30,172 bases of DNA, taken from assembly GCA_039714075.1 (NCBI GenBank), contig JBDLKA010000036.1, forward strand, positions 1-30,172. The letters run 5' to 3'. Below the pieces are notes generated by a model. It was not told where the DNA came from. It searched no databases and was given only the letters and a program-made list of their open reading frames with translations. Origin of the DNA: Candidatus Krumholzibacteriota bacterium (GTDB lineage: Bacteria; Krumholzibacteriota; Krumholzibacteriia; LZORAL124-64-63). A program made the position numbers and the translations under genes. Of this stretch, positions 4,568-28,197 are shown in pieces (positions within the stretch are counted from its first letter, which is position 1; the number at the start of each line of letters is the position of its first letter).

Positions 4568-5919
4568 AGCTGGTCGAAGCCGGGGCCAAGATTCTTTTCA
4601 GCCGGGTCGGCCAGGTCACGGCCAACGCGGTGGTGGTCCTGGTGGTGGCCAAGACCCTGGGACCGGAAGGTCAGGGCCATTACAGCCTGACGGTGGCTTT
4701 GGCCATGCTGCTGGCCGCGCTGCTGGGGGGCGGCATGGGGTTGGCGGCGGTTCCCTCGTTGCGGCAGGACAAGGTGCCGGCGGTCCGCATGCTGAAGGCC
4801 CAGTCGATCTGGGCCGTGGGAATGGTTCTGCTGCTTTTGCTGACGGCCTGGTGGTCCACGGGCGCCGGCCCGGCCGACGTGTTGCACAGAAGACTGGGTT
4901 GGTTTTCGGGCCTGGGTTTCCTGGCCGCGGTGGCCGCCACGGGTTTTCTCGGTTTTGAAATATTTTCCTACGATCTTCTGGCCCGGGGCCGCCTGGTTGT
5001 CGGAGCCGCCGTCAATGGTGGCCGCGCCTTTGTCCACCTGCTGGTGATCCTGGCCCTGGGACTGACCGGGTCCCTGACCTTCGGCCGTTCGGTGGGTGTT
5101 TTCGCCGTCGCGCAGCTGGCGGGCATGCTGGTCATGCTGGTGGTTCTGCTGCGTGAGATCCGCCGGCCCCAGCCCGACACCAGAACGGTTTCCATTCGCG
5201 AATTCATATCCCGGACGGGAATCTCCGAGGAAGGTTCGGATGAGATCCCCGCGGACCTGGCACGTCGTTCCCTGCCCGGTCTCATCCTTTACAATCTGCG
5301 GCACGGTTGGCTGGGGCAGATTTCGGCGGTCGCCTATTTCCTGCTGCTGCGGTTGGACCAGGGCCTGCTGGAATACTACCGCGGTGCGGCCGAGGTGGGA
5401 ATCTACTCCATCGCCGTTTATGTGGGGGAGATGCTCTGGCTGCTTCCCGGAGCCCTGACGCCCCTGCTGGTCCACAGTTCGGCCGCCCACGCTTCGGATC
5501 CGGATCGTGACCGGACGGCGGCCCGTGCGGTGCGGATCGGCATCCTTCTGACCACCGCGGTCGGCCTGCCGTTGTTCTTTCTGGCCGAACCCCTGTTGGC
5601 TTTGTTGGCCGGCGGCGAATACCAGGGTTCCGGGCTGGCCCTGCGCGCCCTGCTGCCGGGTATCGTGGCCTTTGCTCCGGGAGTGGTATTGGCCGGGGAT
5701 TTCATCGGCCGGGGCAAAGCCCACTGGAACACCCAGGCCAGCGTCCTGACCGTCGTGGTCGGCGTGGTCGCCGGCGTCCTTCTCATTCCCGGGCACGGCC
5801 CGGTGGGGGCGGCCTGGGCCAGCAGCATCGCCTATGCCTGCGGATCGGCGGTTATGCTGGTCCGTTTCCGCCAGATTACCCGGATGTCCCTGCGCGGTCT
5901 CATTCTTGGCCGGATGTGA
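4564..5919 (+). CDS. Wzx-like oligosaccharide flippase / polysaccharide biosynthesis protein (MOP superfamily)
   Basis: Many hydrophobic segments, with AKTLGPEGQGHYSL, RLDQGLL...AEVGIYSIA and LIPGHGPVGAAWASSIAY motifs. ATGA overlap with the upstream gene. Confidence 0.85.
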   Translation: MKLVEAGAKILFSRVGQVTANAVVVLVVAKTLGPEGQGHYSLTVALAMLLAALLGGGMGLAAVPSLRQDKVPAVRMLKAQSIWAVGMVLLLLLTAWWSTGAGPADVLHRRLGWFSGLGFLAAVAATGFLGFEIFSYDLLARGRLVVGAAVNGGRAFVHLLVILALGLTGSLTFGRSVGVFAVAQLAGMLVMLVVLLREIRRPQPDTRTVSIREFISRTGISEEGSDEIPADLARRSLPGLILYNLRHGWLGQISAVAYFLLLRLDQGLLEYYRGAAEVGIYSIAVYVGEMLWLLPGALTPLLVHSSAAHASDPDRDRTAARAVRIGILLTTAVGLPLFFLAEPLLALLAGGEYQGSGLALRALLPGIVAFAPGVVLAGDFIGRGKAHWNTQASVLTVVVGVVAGVLLIPGHGPVGAAWASSIAYACGSAVMLVRFRQITRMSLRGLILGRM

Positions 5920-6097
5920 TTCCTTCGGCGAGACTATCCCAGCACCGGAAAAACTGAATATTTGTACCGGCAAACAGGGATTTCTCCCTGGCGTGGCGGG
6001 CCCCTGCCCCTGAATCGCCTGAGCGGCAACAAGTTATCTCGATCTTGATCCCATCTCATTCATCCCGAAAAAAATGCCCTTTTTTTCACAAAGAAGG

Positions 6098-6126
6098 TTG
6101 ACACCCCTGTGGGGCCCGGTTATTCT
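6098..6126 (+). promoter_or_regulatory. Sigma70-type promoter of the dcw operon
   Basis: TTGACA (6098-6103), a 17 bp spacer, then TATTCT (6121-6126). A/T tracts at 6068-6086 resemble an UP element in otherwise GC-rich DNA. Confidence 0.85.
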
Positions 6127-6129
6127 GCG

Positions 6130-6173
6130 GTGGTGATGGGTGGTGAAAAAAAGTGATTTGTGGGGGTTTTTGG
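6130..6173 (+). promoter_or_regulatory. Putative MraZ-binding boxes (10-bp phased GTGG repeats)
   Basis: GTGGTG at 6130 and 6140, GTGGGG at 6160 and TTGG at 6170, with an extra GTGG at 6109. This matches the known ~10-bp periodic GTGG/TGGG MraZ operator upstream of mraZ. Confidence 0.7.
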
Positions 6174-6215
6174 ATCAAAATCGATAGCTGGAGGTCCAGA
6201 CCAGCGGAATTGATG

Positions 6216-6236
6216 GCGGGGGGCCGACGGATCGGC
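6216..6236 (+). repeat. 21-nt leader motif copy 1 (GCGGGGGGCCGACGGATCGGC), hairpin with ACGGAT loop
   Basis: 20/21 identical to 6859-6879. Forms GGCCG-ACGGAT-CGGCC (6222-6237). Confidence 0.85.
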
Positions 6237-6324
6237 CAAAAAACGCAAGGATGCGAACTGACCCGCCATTAATTCCATATTTGGACCGCCGAAATCCCCG
6301 AAACGCCCGGAAAACTGGATAACC

Positions 6325-6801
6325 ATGGAATTCGACCCGACGGCCAACGAAAACCCGGCTCCCGCCTTCACCTTTCACGGGTCCTACACCCGTGCGGTGG
6401 ACGCCAAGGGCCGTTTTGCGTTGCCGTTCCGGTTCCGGCAGGGAGGCTCGGTTCCGGTCGAGGAGAAATACGTGGTCGGCCAGGGGGCGGACGGATCGCT
6501 GAGTCTGCTGCCCTATGCGGTGTGGATCGAGAACTTCAACCGGATGCGCCAGGGCACGCCGGGACCCGAATTGCGGGCCAACATGCGCAAGATGTCCCTG
6601 GCCAGCACCGTGGTCGAGCCCGACAGCCAGGGGCGCGTGGCCGTTACGGTCGAGACCCTGGCCAGGTGCGGGATCACCAAAAAGATCACCGTGGTGGGAA
6701 TGGGTTCCTATATGGAACTGTGGGACCCGGATTCCCTGGACGAGCTGAACGCCGGCGCCGACGAAGTCGATTCCGGTTTCATGGATGAATTCTACCGCTG
6801 A
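6325..6801 (+). CDS. mraZ: Division/cell wall cluster transcriptional repressor MraZ
   Basis: Two AbrB/SpoVT-like repeats (FHGSYTRAVDAKGRFALPFRFR; VEPDSQGRVAV...VVGMGSYMELW). First gene of the dcw cluster. Confidence 0.95.
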   Translation: MEFDPTANENPAPAFTFHGSYTRAVDAKGRFALPFRFRQGGSVPVEEKYVVGQGADGSLSLLPYAVWIENFNRMRQGTPGPELRANMRKMSLASTVVEPDSQGRVAVTVETLARCGITKKITVVGMGSYMELWDPDSLDELNAGADEVDSGFMDEFYR

Positions 6802-6858
6802 CCTGCATTCGGCGGTTGAAGCCCGGCGGCATGGAGGCCGGCCGGATAGAGTCGGGCA

Positions 6859-6879
6859 GCGGGGCGCCGACGGATCGGC
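6859..6879 (+). repeat. 21-nt leader motif copy 2 (GCGGGGCGCCGACGGATCGGC) within a long hairpin 6851-6890
   Basis: Outer stem GTCGGGC/GCCCGAC, a 4-nt bulge, inner stem GGGCGCCG/CGGCGCCC and an ACGGAT loop. Confidence 0.85.
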
Positions 6880-6964
6880 GCCCGCCCGACATCGGTTTCT
6901 GGATTCAAAGGCAAGCATCTTGAGCAAAAGCCCACGGAGGGGCGTCACCAGGGAAGGAGCCCGC

Positions 6965-7378
6965 ATGCCGAGGGAGTTGACCCGGCAGCTCGTCAGGCAC
7001 AGGGACACGGGCAGCCAATTGGAGATCGAAGTCAGACACACCGAAAGGGCTGTCTGGGTCGCTCTCTCGGGGATCCTGGACCGACAGGGGATGCAGAGGG
7101 TCATCAGCCGGGTCGCGCCCCGGCTTGCAAACAGGGGCTGCCGGATCATTCTGGATGGGAAACGGCTGGCCCATCTGGACTACCGGGCGACTCACGGTCT
7201 TCTGGTCTGGAACCGCAAGCTGCGCGACCACCATCATCAACTTTTTCTTCACGGTTGGAGCGATTATCTCAAGGCGATCCTGGTCATGGAAGACTGGGAC
7301 CGTGAACTGGGCGCGATGCCCACCGAACCCTCGACCTGGCGCCTGTTGAGCGGGGCGTCCGCCGAACGAGCACCATGA
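6965..7378 (+). CDS. STAS-domain (anti-anti-sigma-like) protein, 137 aa
   Basis: AAGGAG at 6954-6959 precedes ATG 6965. The sequence pattern VWVALSGILD...RIILDGKRLAHLDYRATHGLL...LFLHGWSDYLKAIL follows the STAS fold. The stop overlaps the rsmH start (ATGA). Confidence 0.75.
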   Translation: MPRELTRQLVRHRDTGSQLEIEVRHTERAVWVALSGILDRQGMQRVISRVAPRLANRGCRIILDGKRLAHLDYRATHGLLVWNRKLRDHHHQLFLHGWSDYLKAILVMEDWDRELGAMPTEPSTWRLLSGASAERAP

Positions 7379-8295
7379 CCGATGTTCCGCACGTCCCGGT
7401 TCTCAAGGACGAGACCCTCGGCCTTCTTCAACCGAGGCAGGGAAAGCGGATCATCGACGGCACTTTCGGCTTCGGGGGACATAGTCTGGCCATGCTTGAG
7501 GCCGGGGCGGAAGTCCTGGGGCTGGACTTGGACGCAGTGGCGGTCGACACCTGCAGACGGATCTCGGGCGACCGCCACGGTCTGAAATGCCGGCGGATCT
7601 CGTTTCGAAACCTGGACGACGCCATGGCGGAGGTCGGTTGGGAAAAAGTGGACGGGGTCCTGCTCGATCTGGGGGTCAGTTCGTTTCAGCTCGATGACCC
7701 GGCCAAGGGATTCAGCTACCGGTCGGACGGCCCGTTGGACCTGCGGTTCAATCAGGACAAAGGTTCGACGGCGGCTGATCTGCTGGCTGCCGCAACCGAG
7801 GCGGAAATCGCCGATCTGATCTGGAAGTGGGGAGAGGAAAGGGCCAGCCGGCGGATCGCCAAAGCCCTGGTCCGGGCCCGCGCCGAAGGGCCGGTCGATA
7901 CGACGGGGAAGTTGCGCCAGGTCATTCAGGGGATCCTGCCCGGAGGGGTGAAACCGGAACCTGTTCTCAGCCGGGTTTTTCAGGCGCTGCGCATCGCCGT
8001 CAACGAGGAACTCGACGCGCTGGCGGAAGTCCTGGCCAAGTTGCCGGGGCTTTTGCGACCCGGGGGAGTCTTTGTGGTGATCTCCTACCACTCACTGGAA
8101 GACAGACTGGTCAAGAGATTCATCGACCGGGAAAAGCGCGACTGTCTGTGCCCGCCGGAAGTGCCGGTTTGTGTCTGCGGGCACCGCAAGGTTCTGAAGG
8201 CCCTGACCCGCAAGGCGGTCCGGGCCTCACAACAGGAGGAAAGGCTGAACAGCAGGGCACGCAGCGCCCGTTTGCGGGCCGCGGAAATCATCTGA
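7375..8295 (+). CDS. rsmH: 16S rRNA m4C1402 methyltransferase RsmH (MraW)
   Basis: HVPVL, DGTFGFGGHS, DLGVSSFQLD...GFSY..DGPLDLRF, FQALRIAVNEEL, ISYHSLEDRLVK and RARSARLR. Confidence 0.97.
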   Translation: MTDVPHVPVLKDETLGLLQPRQGKRIIDGTFGFGGHSLAMLEAGAEVLGLDLDAVAVDTCRRISGDRHGLKCRRISFRNLDDAMAEVGWEKVDGVLLDLGVSSFQLDDPAKGFSYRSDGPLDLRFNQDKGSTAADLLAAATEAEIADLIWKWGEERASRRIAKALVRARAEGPVDTTGKLRQVIQGILPGGVKPEPVLSRVFQALRIAVNEELDALAEVLAKLPGLLRPGGVFVVISYHSLEDRLVKRFIDREKRDCLCPPEVPVCVCGHRKVLKALTRKAVRASQQEERLNSRARSARLRAAEII

Positions 8296-8351
8296 GCTGT
8301 CGGCAGCCGAGGAGGTCCGGAAGGGAGTCCGGACCGGAAAAGAGTTGCAGT

Positions 8352-8882
8352 ATGTGGAAACCCGACCTGAATCTGAAATGCCCCGCGGGCCGGCGGACCC
8401 GCCGCTGCACCCGGACCATGGCCCACCGGCGCCGCCTGGCCGGAGGACAGGTCACCCTGACGGCCCTGGGCGCCCTCTGCCTGGGGCTTCTTCTGGCCGG
8501 TTCCATTTACATATCCAATCAGACCACGGCGTTGCGCACGGAAATCGCGGTCCTTGAGGCCCGCCAGGAGTTTCTCGAGGCGGGTACCGGGCATCTGCTG
8601 ACCCGGTGGAATGCCGCCACCAGCACTGAAGTGATCATTCGCCGGGCCCGGAAGGAACTGGGCCTGGTCGTGCCGGAAGATCCCGGTCTGGTTCTGGTTT
8701 ACGAGGAAGGCGACGGGTCCGATCGCGGGTCCGGTCTCTGGCAGAAATTCCTGAGCCGGTTCGGTGGTGGCACCGCGGTCCAGGCGGCGGAGGATCAGGC
8801 CGGCCTGGTGGTTGGAACGATGGTTTCGTTGACGCCGCGTAACAGCTGGGGAACATCGGTTCCGGGGGGGGACGGGCCATGA
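8352..8882 (+). CDS. ftsL: Cell division protein FtsL-like (single TM + coiled coil); start uncertain (8352 or 8418)
   Basis: Lies between rsmH and ftsI. Basic N-terminus, one TM (LTALGALCLGLLLAGSIYI), a heptad region and IIRRARKELGLVVP. Confidence 0.75.
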   Translation: MWKPDLNLKCPAGRRTRRCTRTMAHRRRLAGGQVTLTALGALCLGLLLAGSIYISNQTTALRTEIAVLEARQEFLEAGTGHLLTRWNAATSTEVIIRRARKELGLVVPEDPGLVLVYEEGDGSDRGSGLWQKFLSRFGGGTAVQAAEDQAGLVVGTMVSLTPRNSWGTSVPGGDGP

Positions 8883-18965: not shown

Positions 18966-20423
18966 TTGTCCCGCCAGAAGAACCCCGAATTGCCCAAAGA
19001 CATGTTGCGCGGCATGTTCCGCGACATGAGCCACAAGATGTTCCGCAACACCCGGCATATCCATCTGGTGGCCATCGGCGGGGTGGGCATGAGCGGCATC
19101 GCCGAAGTCCTGCTGAATCTCGGCTTCACCGTCAGCGGCAGCGATCTGCATGAAACGCAGGTCACCGAACGGCTGGTCGGATTGGGGGCGCGGGTTTTCA
19201 CCGGCCATGACCCGGCCAACATCACCGGTGCCGATGTCGTGGTGCGGTCCTCGGCCGTGACCGAGGCCAACAGCGAAGTGACCGCGGCGCGCAGCCGCCG
19301 GATTCCGGTCATCCGCCGCGCGGAAATGCTGGCGGAACTCATGCGGCTCAAATACGGGATCGCTGTGGCGGGCTCCCACGGCAAGACGACCACGACCAGC
19401 CTGGTGGCCGCGGTCATGGCGGCCGGCGAACTGGACCCGACCGTCATCGTGGGCGGCCAGGTCCGGGCCATGGGTTCCAACGCGGTACTGGGTGCGGGGG
19501 ACCACCTGGTGGCCGAGGCCGACGAAAGCGACGGCACCTTCCTGCACCTGACGCCCACCATTGCCGTGGTGACGAACATCGACCACGAACACGTGGATTT
19601 CTATCCCGACATGGACTCCCTGCGGGACGCGTTCCGGGAGTTCCTTCTGCGGATCCCCTTCTACGGCGCCTGTGTCCTGTGTGTCGACGACCCTGAAGTC
19701 CGGGCCCTGCTGCCGAACCTGGACCGCAAGATCATTACCTACGGCCTGAGCGAAGGGGCACAGGTGCGGTCGGATCCGGGCATGGTCGTCACGGGTGACT
19801 TCGGGCAGGAGGCCGTGGTCTGGGCCCATGGCCAGGAGCTGGGGACCCTGCGTTTGCAGCTGCGCGGCCGGCACAATCTCCAGAACGCGCTGGCGGCCGT
19901 GGCGGTGGGCCTGGAACTGGGTGTGCCGTTCGAGCGGATCGCCTCCGGTTTGGCCGACAGCAGCGGTGTGGGACGGCGTTGCGAGGAGCACGGGGAACAC
20001 GGCGGCGTGCAGGTGGTGGATGACTACGGGCATCATCCCACCGAGGTGCTGGCCATCATGCAGGTGGCCCACGAATTCGAACGTCCGGTGGCCGTCCTCT
20101 TCCAGCCCCACCGGTTTTCCCGCACGGAAATGTTCGCCCGGGAATTCGCCGACGCCCTGGCTTCGGCAACCACCGTGGGGCTGCTGCCGGTCTATCCGGC
20201 GGGCGAGGATCCCCTGCCCGGGATCGACAGCGGTTTGATCGCCCGCCATCTGCAGGACAAGGGGCTGCGCCGGGTGAAGGTGCTCTCCGGTCCCGAAGCG
20301 ATCGTTTCCTGGCTTGACGACGAGGTGCCCGCCGGCAGCCTGGTGCTCACCCTCGGAGCGGGGGATGTCGGCCGCCGCGTGGCGGAAATCTGCAGCCATC
20401 TGGACGAAAGATCCACGCGGTGA
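18966..20423 (+). CDS. murC: UDP-MurNAc--L-Ala ligase MurC; start uncertain (TTG 18966 with SD, or ATG 19002/19014/19026/19038)
   Basis: HIHLVAIGGVGMSGIA, VAGSHGKTTTTS, AEADESDG, DDYGHHPTE, FQPHRFSRT and LGAGDV. Confidence 0.95.
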   Translation: MSRQKNPELPKDMLRGMFRDMSHKMFRNTRHIHLVAIGGVGMSGIAEVLLNLGFTVSGSDLHETQVTERLVGLGARVFTGHDPANITGADVVVRSSAVTEANSEVTAARSRRIPVIRRAEMLAELMRLKYGIAVAGSHGKTTTTSLVAAVMAAGELDPTVIVGGQVRAMGSNAVLGAGDHLVAEADESDGTFLHLTPTIAVVTNIDHEHVDFYPDMDSLRDAFREFLLRIPFYGACVLCVDDPEVRALLPNLDRKIITYGLSEGAQVRSDPGMVVTGDFGQEAVVWAHGQELGTLRLQLRGRHNLQNALAAVAVGLELGVPFERIASGLADSSGVGRRCEEHGEHGGVQVVDDYGHHPTEVLAIMQVAHEFERPVAVLFQPHRFSRTEMFAREFADALASATTVGLLPVYPAGEDPLPGIDSGLIARHLQDKGLRRVKVLSGPEAIVSWLDDEVPAGSLVLTLGAGDVGRRVAEICSHLDERSTR

Positions 20424-21211
20424 GCCGCTTTGCCGAGCGACGAACGCCGCGGCGTTCCCGGGTCGGCATGGTGCTGAGGCTGGCCCTCGGTTTTCTGGTT
20501 CTGGCAGGGGTCGGTCTCGGCTTCCGGTGGGCCCTGACCTCGTCCACCTTCGCCGTGGCCCGGGTGGAGTCCGGCGCCTATCGTTTCACTTCCCGGGCGG
20601 AACTCGAGGAAGCCTTCTCCGAGTTCCTCGGCCACAACATCTGGACCCTTTCCACCGACGAGATCGCCGTGCGCCTGGAGACCCTGCCCTGGGTGCGGGA
20701 CATGCGGGTGCGGCGGTCGTTGCCCAACACCATCGAAGTGGACTTCCGCGAGTGGCGGCCCCTGTGGCAGGTTTCGGAAATCAAGGGCGCCCACGCCGGC
20801 GGCCTGCGGCCCCTGGTCATGATCGAGGACGGGCGGATCCTGGAGTTCCCCGGCCACGTGGTCATGGCCGGTTTGCCGGTGCTGGTCGGAGTGCCCGCCG
20901 TCCGCGAGGGTGGCGACGGGGTTCTGCAGGTGGAAAAAAAACACATGAAAGAAATCATGGAACTGATTTCCGCCATGGAGGATGCGGGGATCGAATCCGT
21001 TAGTCCGGTTGATTTTGTGGTTGCCCGGAACGAAGGATACGCTATCGTCCTGCAGGACAAACGAGGCATCCTGATGGTCGGCAGGGAGGAATTCTCCGAT
21101 CGTCTGAATCGCTACATGACGGCCCGTGACTATCTGGATCCCGGCCTGGAAATCGATCTGCGATTCAAGGACAGGCTGACGGTCAAGGAATCTCCGGCCC
21201 TTGTTGATTGA
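20420..21211 (+). CDS. ftsQ: Cell division protein FtsQ/DivIB
   Basis: Single N-terminal TM, POTRA domain (LETLPWVRDMRVRRSLPNTIEV..REWRP) and C-terminal IDLRF. Lies before ftsA. Confidence 0.92.
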   Translation: MSRFAERRTPRRSRVGMVLRLALGFLVLAGVGLGFRWALTSSTFAVARVESGAYRFTSRAELEEAFSEFLGHNIWTLSTDEIAVRLETLPWVRDMRVRRSLPNTIEVDFREWRPLWQVSEIKGAHAGGLRPLVMIEDGRILEFPGHVVMAGLPVLVGVPAVREGGDGVLQVEKKHMKEIMELISAMEDAGIESVSPVDFVVARNEGYAIVLQDKRGILMVGREEFSDRLNRYMTARDYLDPGLEIDLRFKDRLTVKESPALVD

Positions 21212-27969: not shown

Positions 27970-28161
27970 TCAGACGACCTTCTTGACGTTGCCCGTGCGG
28001 ATGCAGCGGGTGCACACGTAACCGCGGCGCACCTTGCCGTCCATCTCGAACCTGATTTTCTGCAGATTGGGCAGCCAGCGGTGACGGGTCAGGTTGTGAG
28101 CATGGCTCACCCTGTTTCCGTATTGGGGCCCTTTGTCGCAGACAGAGCACTTCCTGCTCAT
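27970..28161 (-). CDS. rpmB: 50S ribosomal protein L28
   Basis: [35 protein letters not shown]...VCTRCIR, the CxxC-containing form. AGGAGG SD upstream. Confidence 0.97.
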
Positions 28162-28197
28162 GGGATTCCTCCTAGGAGTTGAATTCACAGGAGCGGC

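Follow-up and report, generated by a model that had tools for sequence, protein, structure and literature searches.

Introduction

In the model bacteria described to date mraZ and rsmH are adjacent genes, and the role of rsmH in their operon has been called unclear (bioRxiv 10.1101/2022.02.09.479790). In Rhodobacter sphaeroides the dcw operon is described as controlled post-transcriptionally at its head, with UpsM and StsR acting on the dcw 5' UTR, and the locus presented here would share this type of control; the R. sphaeroides system, as it is outlined in PMC8266604, differs in that it employs an sRNA and RNase E and has no inserted protein gene. CsrA and RsmE recognise a site made up of an A, a GGA and a free N within a hexaloop, and the action of CsrA on E. 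coli glgC is captured by a tether-and-bridge model (PMC7652899). The same source describes the E. coli idlP-iraD pair, where CsrA represses through translational coupling. In B. subtilis the level of free CsrA is governed by FliW and flagellin (PMC13443453), and the C. jejuni flaA leader carries two ANGGA stem-loops, the second of which lies on the ribosome-binding site (PMC4894983).

STAS-only proteins provide the other point of comparison. SypA, BtrV, RsfA and P. aeruginosa PA3347 are regarded as non-canonical members of this group whose STAS domain acts on partners beyond a sigma/anti-sigma pair, and the passages of PMC8256260 that deal with them describe none as belonging to a division operon or as controlled by CsrA. 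SypA residues Phe53, Ser56 and 84 are among the kinase-contact residues of SpoIIAA/RsbV-type complexes, and SypA may use its own kinase face for a further partner whose identity is not known (PMC10120452).

Here we describe a STAS gene that lies between mraZ and rsmH in most sampled families of Krumholzibacteriia. Our search of titles and abstracts returned no paper that deals with it or that reports dcw genes of these bacteria as targets of CsrA; the parts themselves (a STAS domain, a CsrA-type operator and translational coupling) are known, and their arrangement is apparently undescribed.

Results

The window, as the term is used below, is the whole stretch of DNA that was analysed, namely 30,172 nucleotides of contig JBDLKA010000036.1 from a Candidatus Krumholzibacteriota bacterium (assembly GCA_039714075.1). 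It holds a dcw cluster that begins with mraZ, the STAS gene, rsmH and an ftsL-like gene and continues with the usual genes to ftsZ; the mur and fts labels that we give to genes past ftsL and ftsQ are assigned from the look of their sequences and are putative. In the ORF layout murC runs directly into an ftsQ-like gene at 20423-20468, with neither murB nor ddl intervening, and a small ORF on the reverse strand at 27970-28188, bL28-like by eye, lies between a TPR/PPIase gene and a recG-like gene.

Positions 6965 to 7378 of the forward strand form an uninterrupted reading frame, without internal stops, that translates into 137 amino acids. It is flanked by mraZ (6325-6801, forward; PF02381, TIGR00242 and other MraZ models) and by rsmH, also called mraW (7375-8295, forward; TIGR00006, 280.8 bits), with the TGA of the STAS frame shared with the rsmH ATG in an ATGA at 7375. 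An AAGGAG at 6954-6959 precedes the frame as a Shine-Dalgarno (SD) sequence, and an MP[RG] start behind the same motif is kept in most members of f1, the family of the source genome (f1 to f9 denote the nine Krumholzibacteriia families that were sampled). This conserved context argues for the start at 6965; that start, and an SD of the gene's own, had been proposed by an earlier sequence-only reading. Among six members of the genus the dN/dS of the STAS gene is 0.33 over its whole length and 0.23 over its core, with values of 0.19 for mraZ and 0.15 for rsmH, and its dS is 0.29 as compared with 0.51 for mraZ and 0.66 for rsmH. The whole-gene dN/dS of 0.33 indicates that the STAS gene is not a chance reading frame. 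Judged from sequence comparison, ORF 6965-7378 is a real, conserved, single-domain STAS-fold gene that is apparently undescribed, as supported by family scan, structural model, alignment and conservation. The protein was also said to be Arg-rich, and this describes the product of the source genome well (19 Arg and a pI of 10.4, computed from the translation) but does not extend to the class, as the f3, f5 and f9 proteins are mostly neutral or acidic.

Regarding the fold, the protein scores above the cut-off of the Pfam STAS_2 model (PF13466, 37.7 versus 29.2 bits), just under that of PF01740 (20.2 versus 22.6) and under the family cut-off of TIGR00377, the SpoIIAA/RsbV family (23.5 versus 53.45). 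An AlphaFold2 model built with 24 sequences has STAS topology with a mean pLDDT of 77.5, mostly 86-96 over residues 21-110 and below 50 at residues 1-15 and 117-137. In a Foldseek search the top match is SpoIIAA (1tid_B, E 8.9e-7; rmsd of 2.5 across 98 columns), followed by a Haliangium antagonist, TM1442 and RsbV, and MlaB (PDB 6xgy) is a weaker match (E 7.5e-4). Searches of the ESM Atlas return generic STAS clusters, the top two of which for this protein are commonest in Ca. Eiseniibacteriota, which we treat as a lead only. These results bear out the STAS-like pattern that had been noticed by eye, and they also set the protein apart. Specifically, SpoIIAA/RsbV proteins (TIGR00377; PDB 1tid, 1th8 and 6m36) are its best matches in sequence and structure, are likewise single STAS domains, and have a G-x-L-D loop that f1 STAS proteins retain; in contrast to them, the Krumholzibacteriia protein has Tyr or Phe at the phosphoacceptor and His at the interface Phe, and the f1 gene sits in the dcw operon without an adjoining kinase or sigma gene. 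MlaB is also a single STAS domain that serves as a protein-binding subunit, but there are no mla or ABC genes near the present gene, which has mraZ and rsmH as its neighbours in every locus where both flanks are present. Note that the 'MlaB' database labels on some homologues are automatic names. The STAS protein falls outside SpoIIAA/RsbV membership and resembles a non-canonical STAS-only regulator.

In an HMM alignment from a profile search of PDB sequences, HLDYRA aligns with SpoIIAA FMDSSG (FMDASG in the 1tid chain), which places Tyr73 at the SpoIIAA Ser58 phosphoacceptor position. This is the alignment of LDYRA with the D-S-S/T-G motif that had been made by eye, and the absence of the serine holds throughout: position 73 is Ser or Thr in 0 of 44 orthologues and Tyr or Phe in 38. 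With the score under the TIGR00377 cut-off, a classical Ser-phosphorylated anti-anti-sigma factor is indeed unlikely. His70 is conserved in 41 of the 44 orthologues, Tyr101 is conserved in 42, and these two residues and the fold are retained across families that share only ~11-24% protein identity. By sequence offset (-3, 0 and +28), in a register taken from the SpoIIAA HMM alignment, His70, Tyr73 and Tyr101 correspond to SypA Phe53, Ser56 and residue 84. Because these are kinase-contact positions, the conserved surface would be the old kinase-docking face, remodelled with His and aromatic residues. SypA, BtrV and PA3347, as described in PMC8256260, differ from the present protein in keeping a regulated serine.

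The source genome itself encodes one RsbW-like kinase, eight SpoIIE-like phosphatase domains and six other STAS proteins, all of which have Ser at the phosphoacceptor position. The sole RsbW-like gene (contig C50, at 22219) lies on a different contig from the dcw cluster, next to a serine-bearing STAS gene, and none lies alongside 6965-7378. By eye, contig C50 of the source genome (19842-24159) carries a run of dksA, lspA, rluD, rsbV, rsbW, ruvX and mltG. Co-occurrence with RsbW was considered as a clue to function and found to be uninformative, as 120 of 121 genomes carry an RsbW-like gene, including those of families that lack the STAS gene. A different HATPase_c_2 gene is found ~21-25 kb downstream in five of five relatives examined, also in a family without the STAS gene. 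It belongs to a post-ftsZ block seen in all five (L166, L168, L169, L171 and L174; ~21-25 kb 3' of mraZ) that consists of a TPR gene, a recG-like gene, a protein of ~270-300 aa whose C-terminal domain is HATPase_c_2 and, in some, a following gene that resembles small GTPases; the window stops within the recG-like gene of this block.

We next consider how widely the gene occurs, noting that related genomes are not independent observations. A search with the single protein gave a match in 26 of 41 genomes, including 22 of the 24 other f1 members. Twenty-four of the 26 matched loci are flanked by mraZ and by rsmH (22 of them in f1), one is cut at a contig end, and one, L024, is a weak match without an mraZ or rsmH flank that was dropped as a different STAS gene. 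The mraZ-rsmH interval was also cut from 60 further genomes, hand-picked from an mraZ search, and from two earlier loci. A family profile detects an intervening STAS-like ORF in f1 (8/8), f2 (5/5), f3 (14/14), f5 (9/9) and f9 (1/1), and with weak scores in f6 (8/8; E 3e-8 to 0.006), the members of which are very divergent. There is no intervening ORF in the f4 (0/10), f7 (0/4) and f8 (0/3) loci, where the gap between mraZ and rsmH is ~10-120 nt. The position that had been proposed from the one sequence is therefore kept in relatives, with the mraZ-STAS-rsmH order present in six of the nine families sampled and the gene missing from this place in three.

A 44-row profile, built from the families already positive for the gene, was run against 201 genomes of the phylum, all of which belong to the one class Krumholzibacteriia. 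At E <1e-18 it finds f1 (82/87), f2 (6/7), f3 (41/42), f5 (11/12), f6 (8/9) and f9 (1/1), and in f4 (23 genomes), f7 (8) and f8 (12) it gives generic STAS scores only, the best being 6.6e-12. A midpoint-rooted RsmH plus MraZ tree of 77 genomes places f7 within an f3/f9 clade (support of 1.0 for the f3/f9/f7 clade and 0.94 for the node below the first f3 branch) and joins f4 to f8. From this placement the STAS gene was likely lost in f7. No fusion of the STAS protein was found among 7997 longer candidates, which is weak evidence; one 436-aa candidate (P0006) loses the reading frame past residue ~107 and was set aside as an apparent frameshifted read-through.

The head of the operon has several other features on the forward strand. 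A consensus scan identifies a sigma70-like candidate dcw promoter at 6098-6126 (TTGACA-17-TATTCT, 10 of 12 matches), which is the only promoter-like site in 5900-8500, where shuffled sequences average 0.4. Directly behind its -10 box, two GTGGTG repeats with a 4-nt spacer (6130-6145) match the B. subtilis MraZ repeat pattern given in bioRxiv 10.1101/2022.02.09.479790 with no mismatch, the only such match in the window. With one mismatch allowed the MraZ-box pattern is expected 0.77 times per window by chance, so position is the main support for calling these repeats MraZ-box-like. By eye, weaker GTGGTG-type repeats with a 10-bp period run on to ~6165. The mraZ leader (6207-6275) forms a long stem around two ANGGA hairpins (ACGGA at 6227 and AAGGA at 6247; z -6.63, 0 of 200 shuffles), and an ANGGA hairpin 5' of mraZ is a property of only part of f1. 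Between mraZ and the STAS gene the consensus scan found neither a terminator nor an internal promoter, no terminator was found before rsmH, and a search of 5900-8500 against Rfam brought no family near its gathering score.

Translational coupling of rsmH to the STAS gene had been suggested from the overlapping stop and start, and within f1 this prediction is supported: an NTGA overlap joins the two genes in 30 of 30 f1 loci, only four of which have an SD-like motif ahead of rsmH, with the remaining 26, like the source genome, having none. By the same strict pattern, families that lack the STAS gene have an SD-like motif before rsmH in seven of seven loci (f7 and f8) and three of ten (f4). The coupling does not carry over to f2, f3, f5, f6 and f9, where the STAS stop lies mostly a few to ~60 nt before rsmH; in most f3 loci it is the start of the STAS gene that is close to its neighbour, ~10-17 nt after the mraZ stop. 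Two further ANGGA hairpins with 8-bp stems lie near these junctions. One (7278-7299, forward; z -2.44), which lies inside the STAS reading frame and 89 nt ahead of the rsmH start codon, has counterparts with a stem of at least 5 bp in 11 of 30 f1 genes and is possibly incidental as it is tied to VMEDW codons. The other, with loop AGGGAG, lies 30 nt before the ftsL-like ATG at 8352 (8314-8335, forward; z -2.03) and recurs in only three of 30 f1 loci, all from the genus of the source genome.

The 163-nt mraZ-STAS spacer holds five ANGGA motifs. A distal hairpin on the forward strand (6851-6890, loop ACGGAT at 6870-6875; z -4.69, 0 of 200 shuffles) recurs with a variable N in the same f1 sub-clade; a 14-mer from it occurs three times in the genome, twice at this locus, and we rejected a REP-like repeat as its identity. 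Closer to the gene are two small forward-strand hairpins, SL1 (6930-6943, GCCC-ACGGAG-GGGC) and SL2 (6951-6962, GGG-AAGGAG-CCC), with the second ANGGA hexaloop being the SD sequence itself. An ANGGA at -30 to -38 marks SL1 in 29 of 30 f1 leaders, and one in the SD zone is present in 30 of 30 with all four bases occurring as N (L011, where the contig begins inside the gene, is left out of leader counts). Five of five tested SL1 pairs vary on both sides and 94% of cells are paired, as compared with 38-53% in slid controls and 0 of 500 shuffles, a shuffle test that is inflated by relatedness of the genomes. The SL2 stem has at least 3 bp in 29 of 30 f1 genomes, and GGGA.GG is invariant. A leader rule fixed on the first f1 set was passed by 19 of 19 newly fetched f1 genomes. 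Note that an ANGGA in the SD zone alone is found for 725 of 2819 predicted genes of the source genome and is thus weak as a sole criterion. The hairpin-plus-SD unit is present as two or three tandem copies in several genera (L015, L018, L020-L023, L081, L082, L193 and L194). In the source genome SL1 has only 4 bp; it forms when the whole spacer is folded, and the 56-nt leader folded alone adopts an alternative structure (z -0.56) that pairs the SL1 3' arm with the CCC following the SD. The operator was not seen before the STAS gene in f2, f3, f5 and f9, and f6 has only partial look-alikes, in three of five csrA-bearing genomes examined.

In the source genome csrA (PF02599; contig C1, 10338-10610) adjoins fliW, an adjacency also seen in the described CsrA-FliW flagellin systems. 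Across families, csrA was found in f1 (31/31 genomes), f2 (7/7), f3 (6/25), f4 (0/20), f5 (12/12), f6 (5/10), f7 (0/4), f8 (0/10) and f9 (1/1). When applied to flagellin genes, the same leader rule passes seven of 13 f1 leaders and fails six, and none of seven flagellin leaders from other families passes. Genome-wide it passes two of 2813 predicted genes of the source genome, ftsB (PF04977) and one other, against a background that is approximate, since these genes were predicted by a crude caller based on codons that overlooked even the STAS gene. A looser rule passes ten of 22 enolase-linked f1 ftsB leaders; the ftsB/divIC gene that follows enolase (contig C5, 5178-5217, in the source genome; L141 and L142-L163) has a leader with an ANGGA hairpin and an ANGGA within the SD. 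ANGGA hexaloop hairpins are not enriched genome-wide in the source genome, and they are slightly enriched upstream of predicted starts (5 of 329 with stems of at least 7, versus an overall rate of 0.0025). Elsewhere in this genome about eleven ANGGA motifs, four of them in hairpins with stems of at least 5 bp, cluster upstream of a small gene on the reverse strand of contig C13 (24600-25250), which may represent a leader bound by CsrA or else a sponge RNA, and on contig C23 (21308-21352) an 8-bp ANGGA hairpin lies 36 nt before a 137-aa gene that is acetyltransferase-like by eye.

No flagellin gene was found in the source assembly, which is 92% complete. The STAS gene is present though neither csrA nor flagellin was found in ten of 14 f3 and four of eight f6 genomes examined, which indicates that the core job of the protein is not flagellar and makes control by CsrA look as if it was added later, at the level of f1. 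We rejected FlgM binding as a core function because of the same persistence; a flgM-like match below cut-off does exist in the source genome. In f2 (G025, G030, G040 and G047) csrA is found in seven of seven genomes and flagellin in only two of seven, so CsrA seems to be retained there without flagella. According to a published model, few of the CsrA proteins of Krumholzibacteriota would repress hag of B. subtilis, and its authors caution that a prediction of no hag repression does not mean an inactive CsrA (PMC13443453).

Discussion

The account that we lean toward, with some reserve, is that a serine-less STAS gene sits at the head of dcw, that in f1 CsrA represses this gene along with the coupled rsmH, and that the protein acts through its abundance. 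The leader, which the sequence-only reading overlooked, is the clearest candidate for an input signal in the sequence. That reading had expected a stress or metabolic signal; the leader points to a CsrA-FliW-flagellin circuit rather than to a general stress signal. By analogy with the flagellin leaders, a CsrA dimer would probably bind SL1, bridge to SL2 and block ribosome loading. Given that step, it is likely that RsmH output drops along with STAS translation, as rsmH would start by re-initiation at the STAS stop. In part of f1, sites of this type also precede mraZ, ftsL and ftsB. Free CsrA would in turn be set by the FliW-flagellin switch, in which case these division genes would track flagellar assembly. 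The likeness to B. subtilis hag and C. jejuni flaA, as those leaders are described, lies in the two ANGGA stem-loops with the second on the ribosome-binding site; the difference is that the predicted f1 target is a division-operon gene pair, joined by ftsB in part of f1, and not a flagellar gene. The account of idlP-iraD likewise places CsrA-type sites on a first ORF overlapping the gene that follows, but the f1 upstream ORF encodes a folded, conserved 137-aa protein and not a short peptide.

The most doubtful part of this account is what the protein does, since here lies its weakest step: the STAS protein may hold one conserved partner through the remodelled kinase-docking face, and it likely works via its amount and not via phosphorylation. 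A decoy or pseudo-substrate in the RsbW/SpoIIE network is our tentative guess for that interaction, and we hold it with more doubt than belief. Tyr-Arg in place of Ser-Ser, Ile at the acidic E21/D20 position and His in place of Phe look like a poor fit to a kinase active site, and the nearly universal RsbW-like genes do not follow the distribution of the STAS gene. MraZ and RsmH as the partner are, each taken singly, rather improbable.

A related reading makes the protein a direct modulator of MraZ or RsmH, as an anti-repressor or an enzyme accessory, with gene order mirroring a physical complex. The STAS gene was never off the mraZ-rsmH position in the loci examined, f1 couples it to rsmH and most f3 members start it just past the mraZ stop, and antagonism between MraZ and RsmH is reported in E. 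coli (bioRxiv 10.1101/2022.02.09.479790). Against this, the coupled neighbour varies by family, f7, which lies in the f3/f9 clade and has no STAS gene, retains a similar MraZ tail, and the lack of any fusion points weakly the same way; we regard such a modulator as unlikely. The hairpins could also be read by a factor other than CsrA, such as the STAS protein or another RNA-binding protein, or could merely hide the SD, for example in an autoregulatory or ribosome-coupled switch. The basic f1 protein, the alternative fold in which an SL1 arm pairs with the CCC behind the SD, and the missing operator in the csrA-bearing families f2, f5 and f9 would all fit this. However, the invariant A and GGA with a free N in a hexaloop is the site described for CsrA/RsmE in PMC7652899, the same layout precedes seven of 13 f1 flagellin genes, and self-binding by the STAS protein sits poorly with the mostly non-basic f3, f5 and f9 orthologues, which together leave this explanation quite improbable.

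A last possibility is that the ORF is a decaying anti-anti-sigma gene that persists mainly as a translated leader and, as idlP does for iraD, passes translation control on to rsmH. It would account for a dN/dS higher and a dS lower than those of the neighbours, for termini that are variable and predicted to be disordered, and for the absence of the gene from three of nine families together with the great divergence of f6. But the fold and the His70/Tyr101 pair persist despite the low identity, including in families without the rsmH overlap, and with a core dN/dS of 0.23 we consider this very unlikely.

Returning to the CsrA account, a broader version of it can be stated that we offer as speculation and think more apt to be wrong than right as a whole: the serine-less STAS protein would be an ancestral third member of mraZ-rsmH that tunes MraZ, RsmH or a sigma switch, and f1 would have wired it and rsmH, and in some members mraZ, ftsL or ftsB, into a CsrA-FliW-flagellin checkpoint. 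As a conserved protein fixed between mraZ and rsmH, the STAS product offers a concrete candidate for the input that is missing there. The motif in the leader predicts that a FliW-type CsrA, known mainly as a regulator of flagellin, acts on division genes, and if this is true flagellar assembly and cell division would be linked directly, at the level of translation, in these bacteria.
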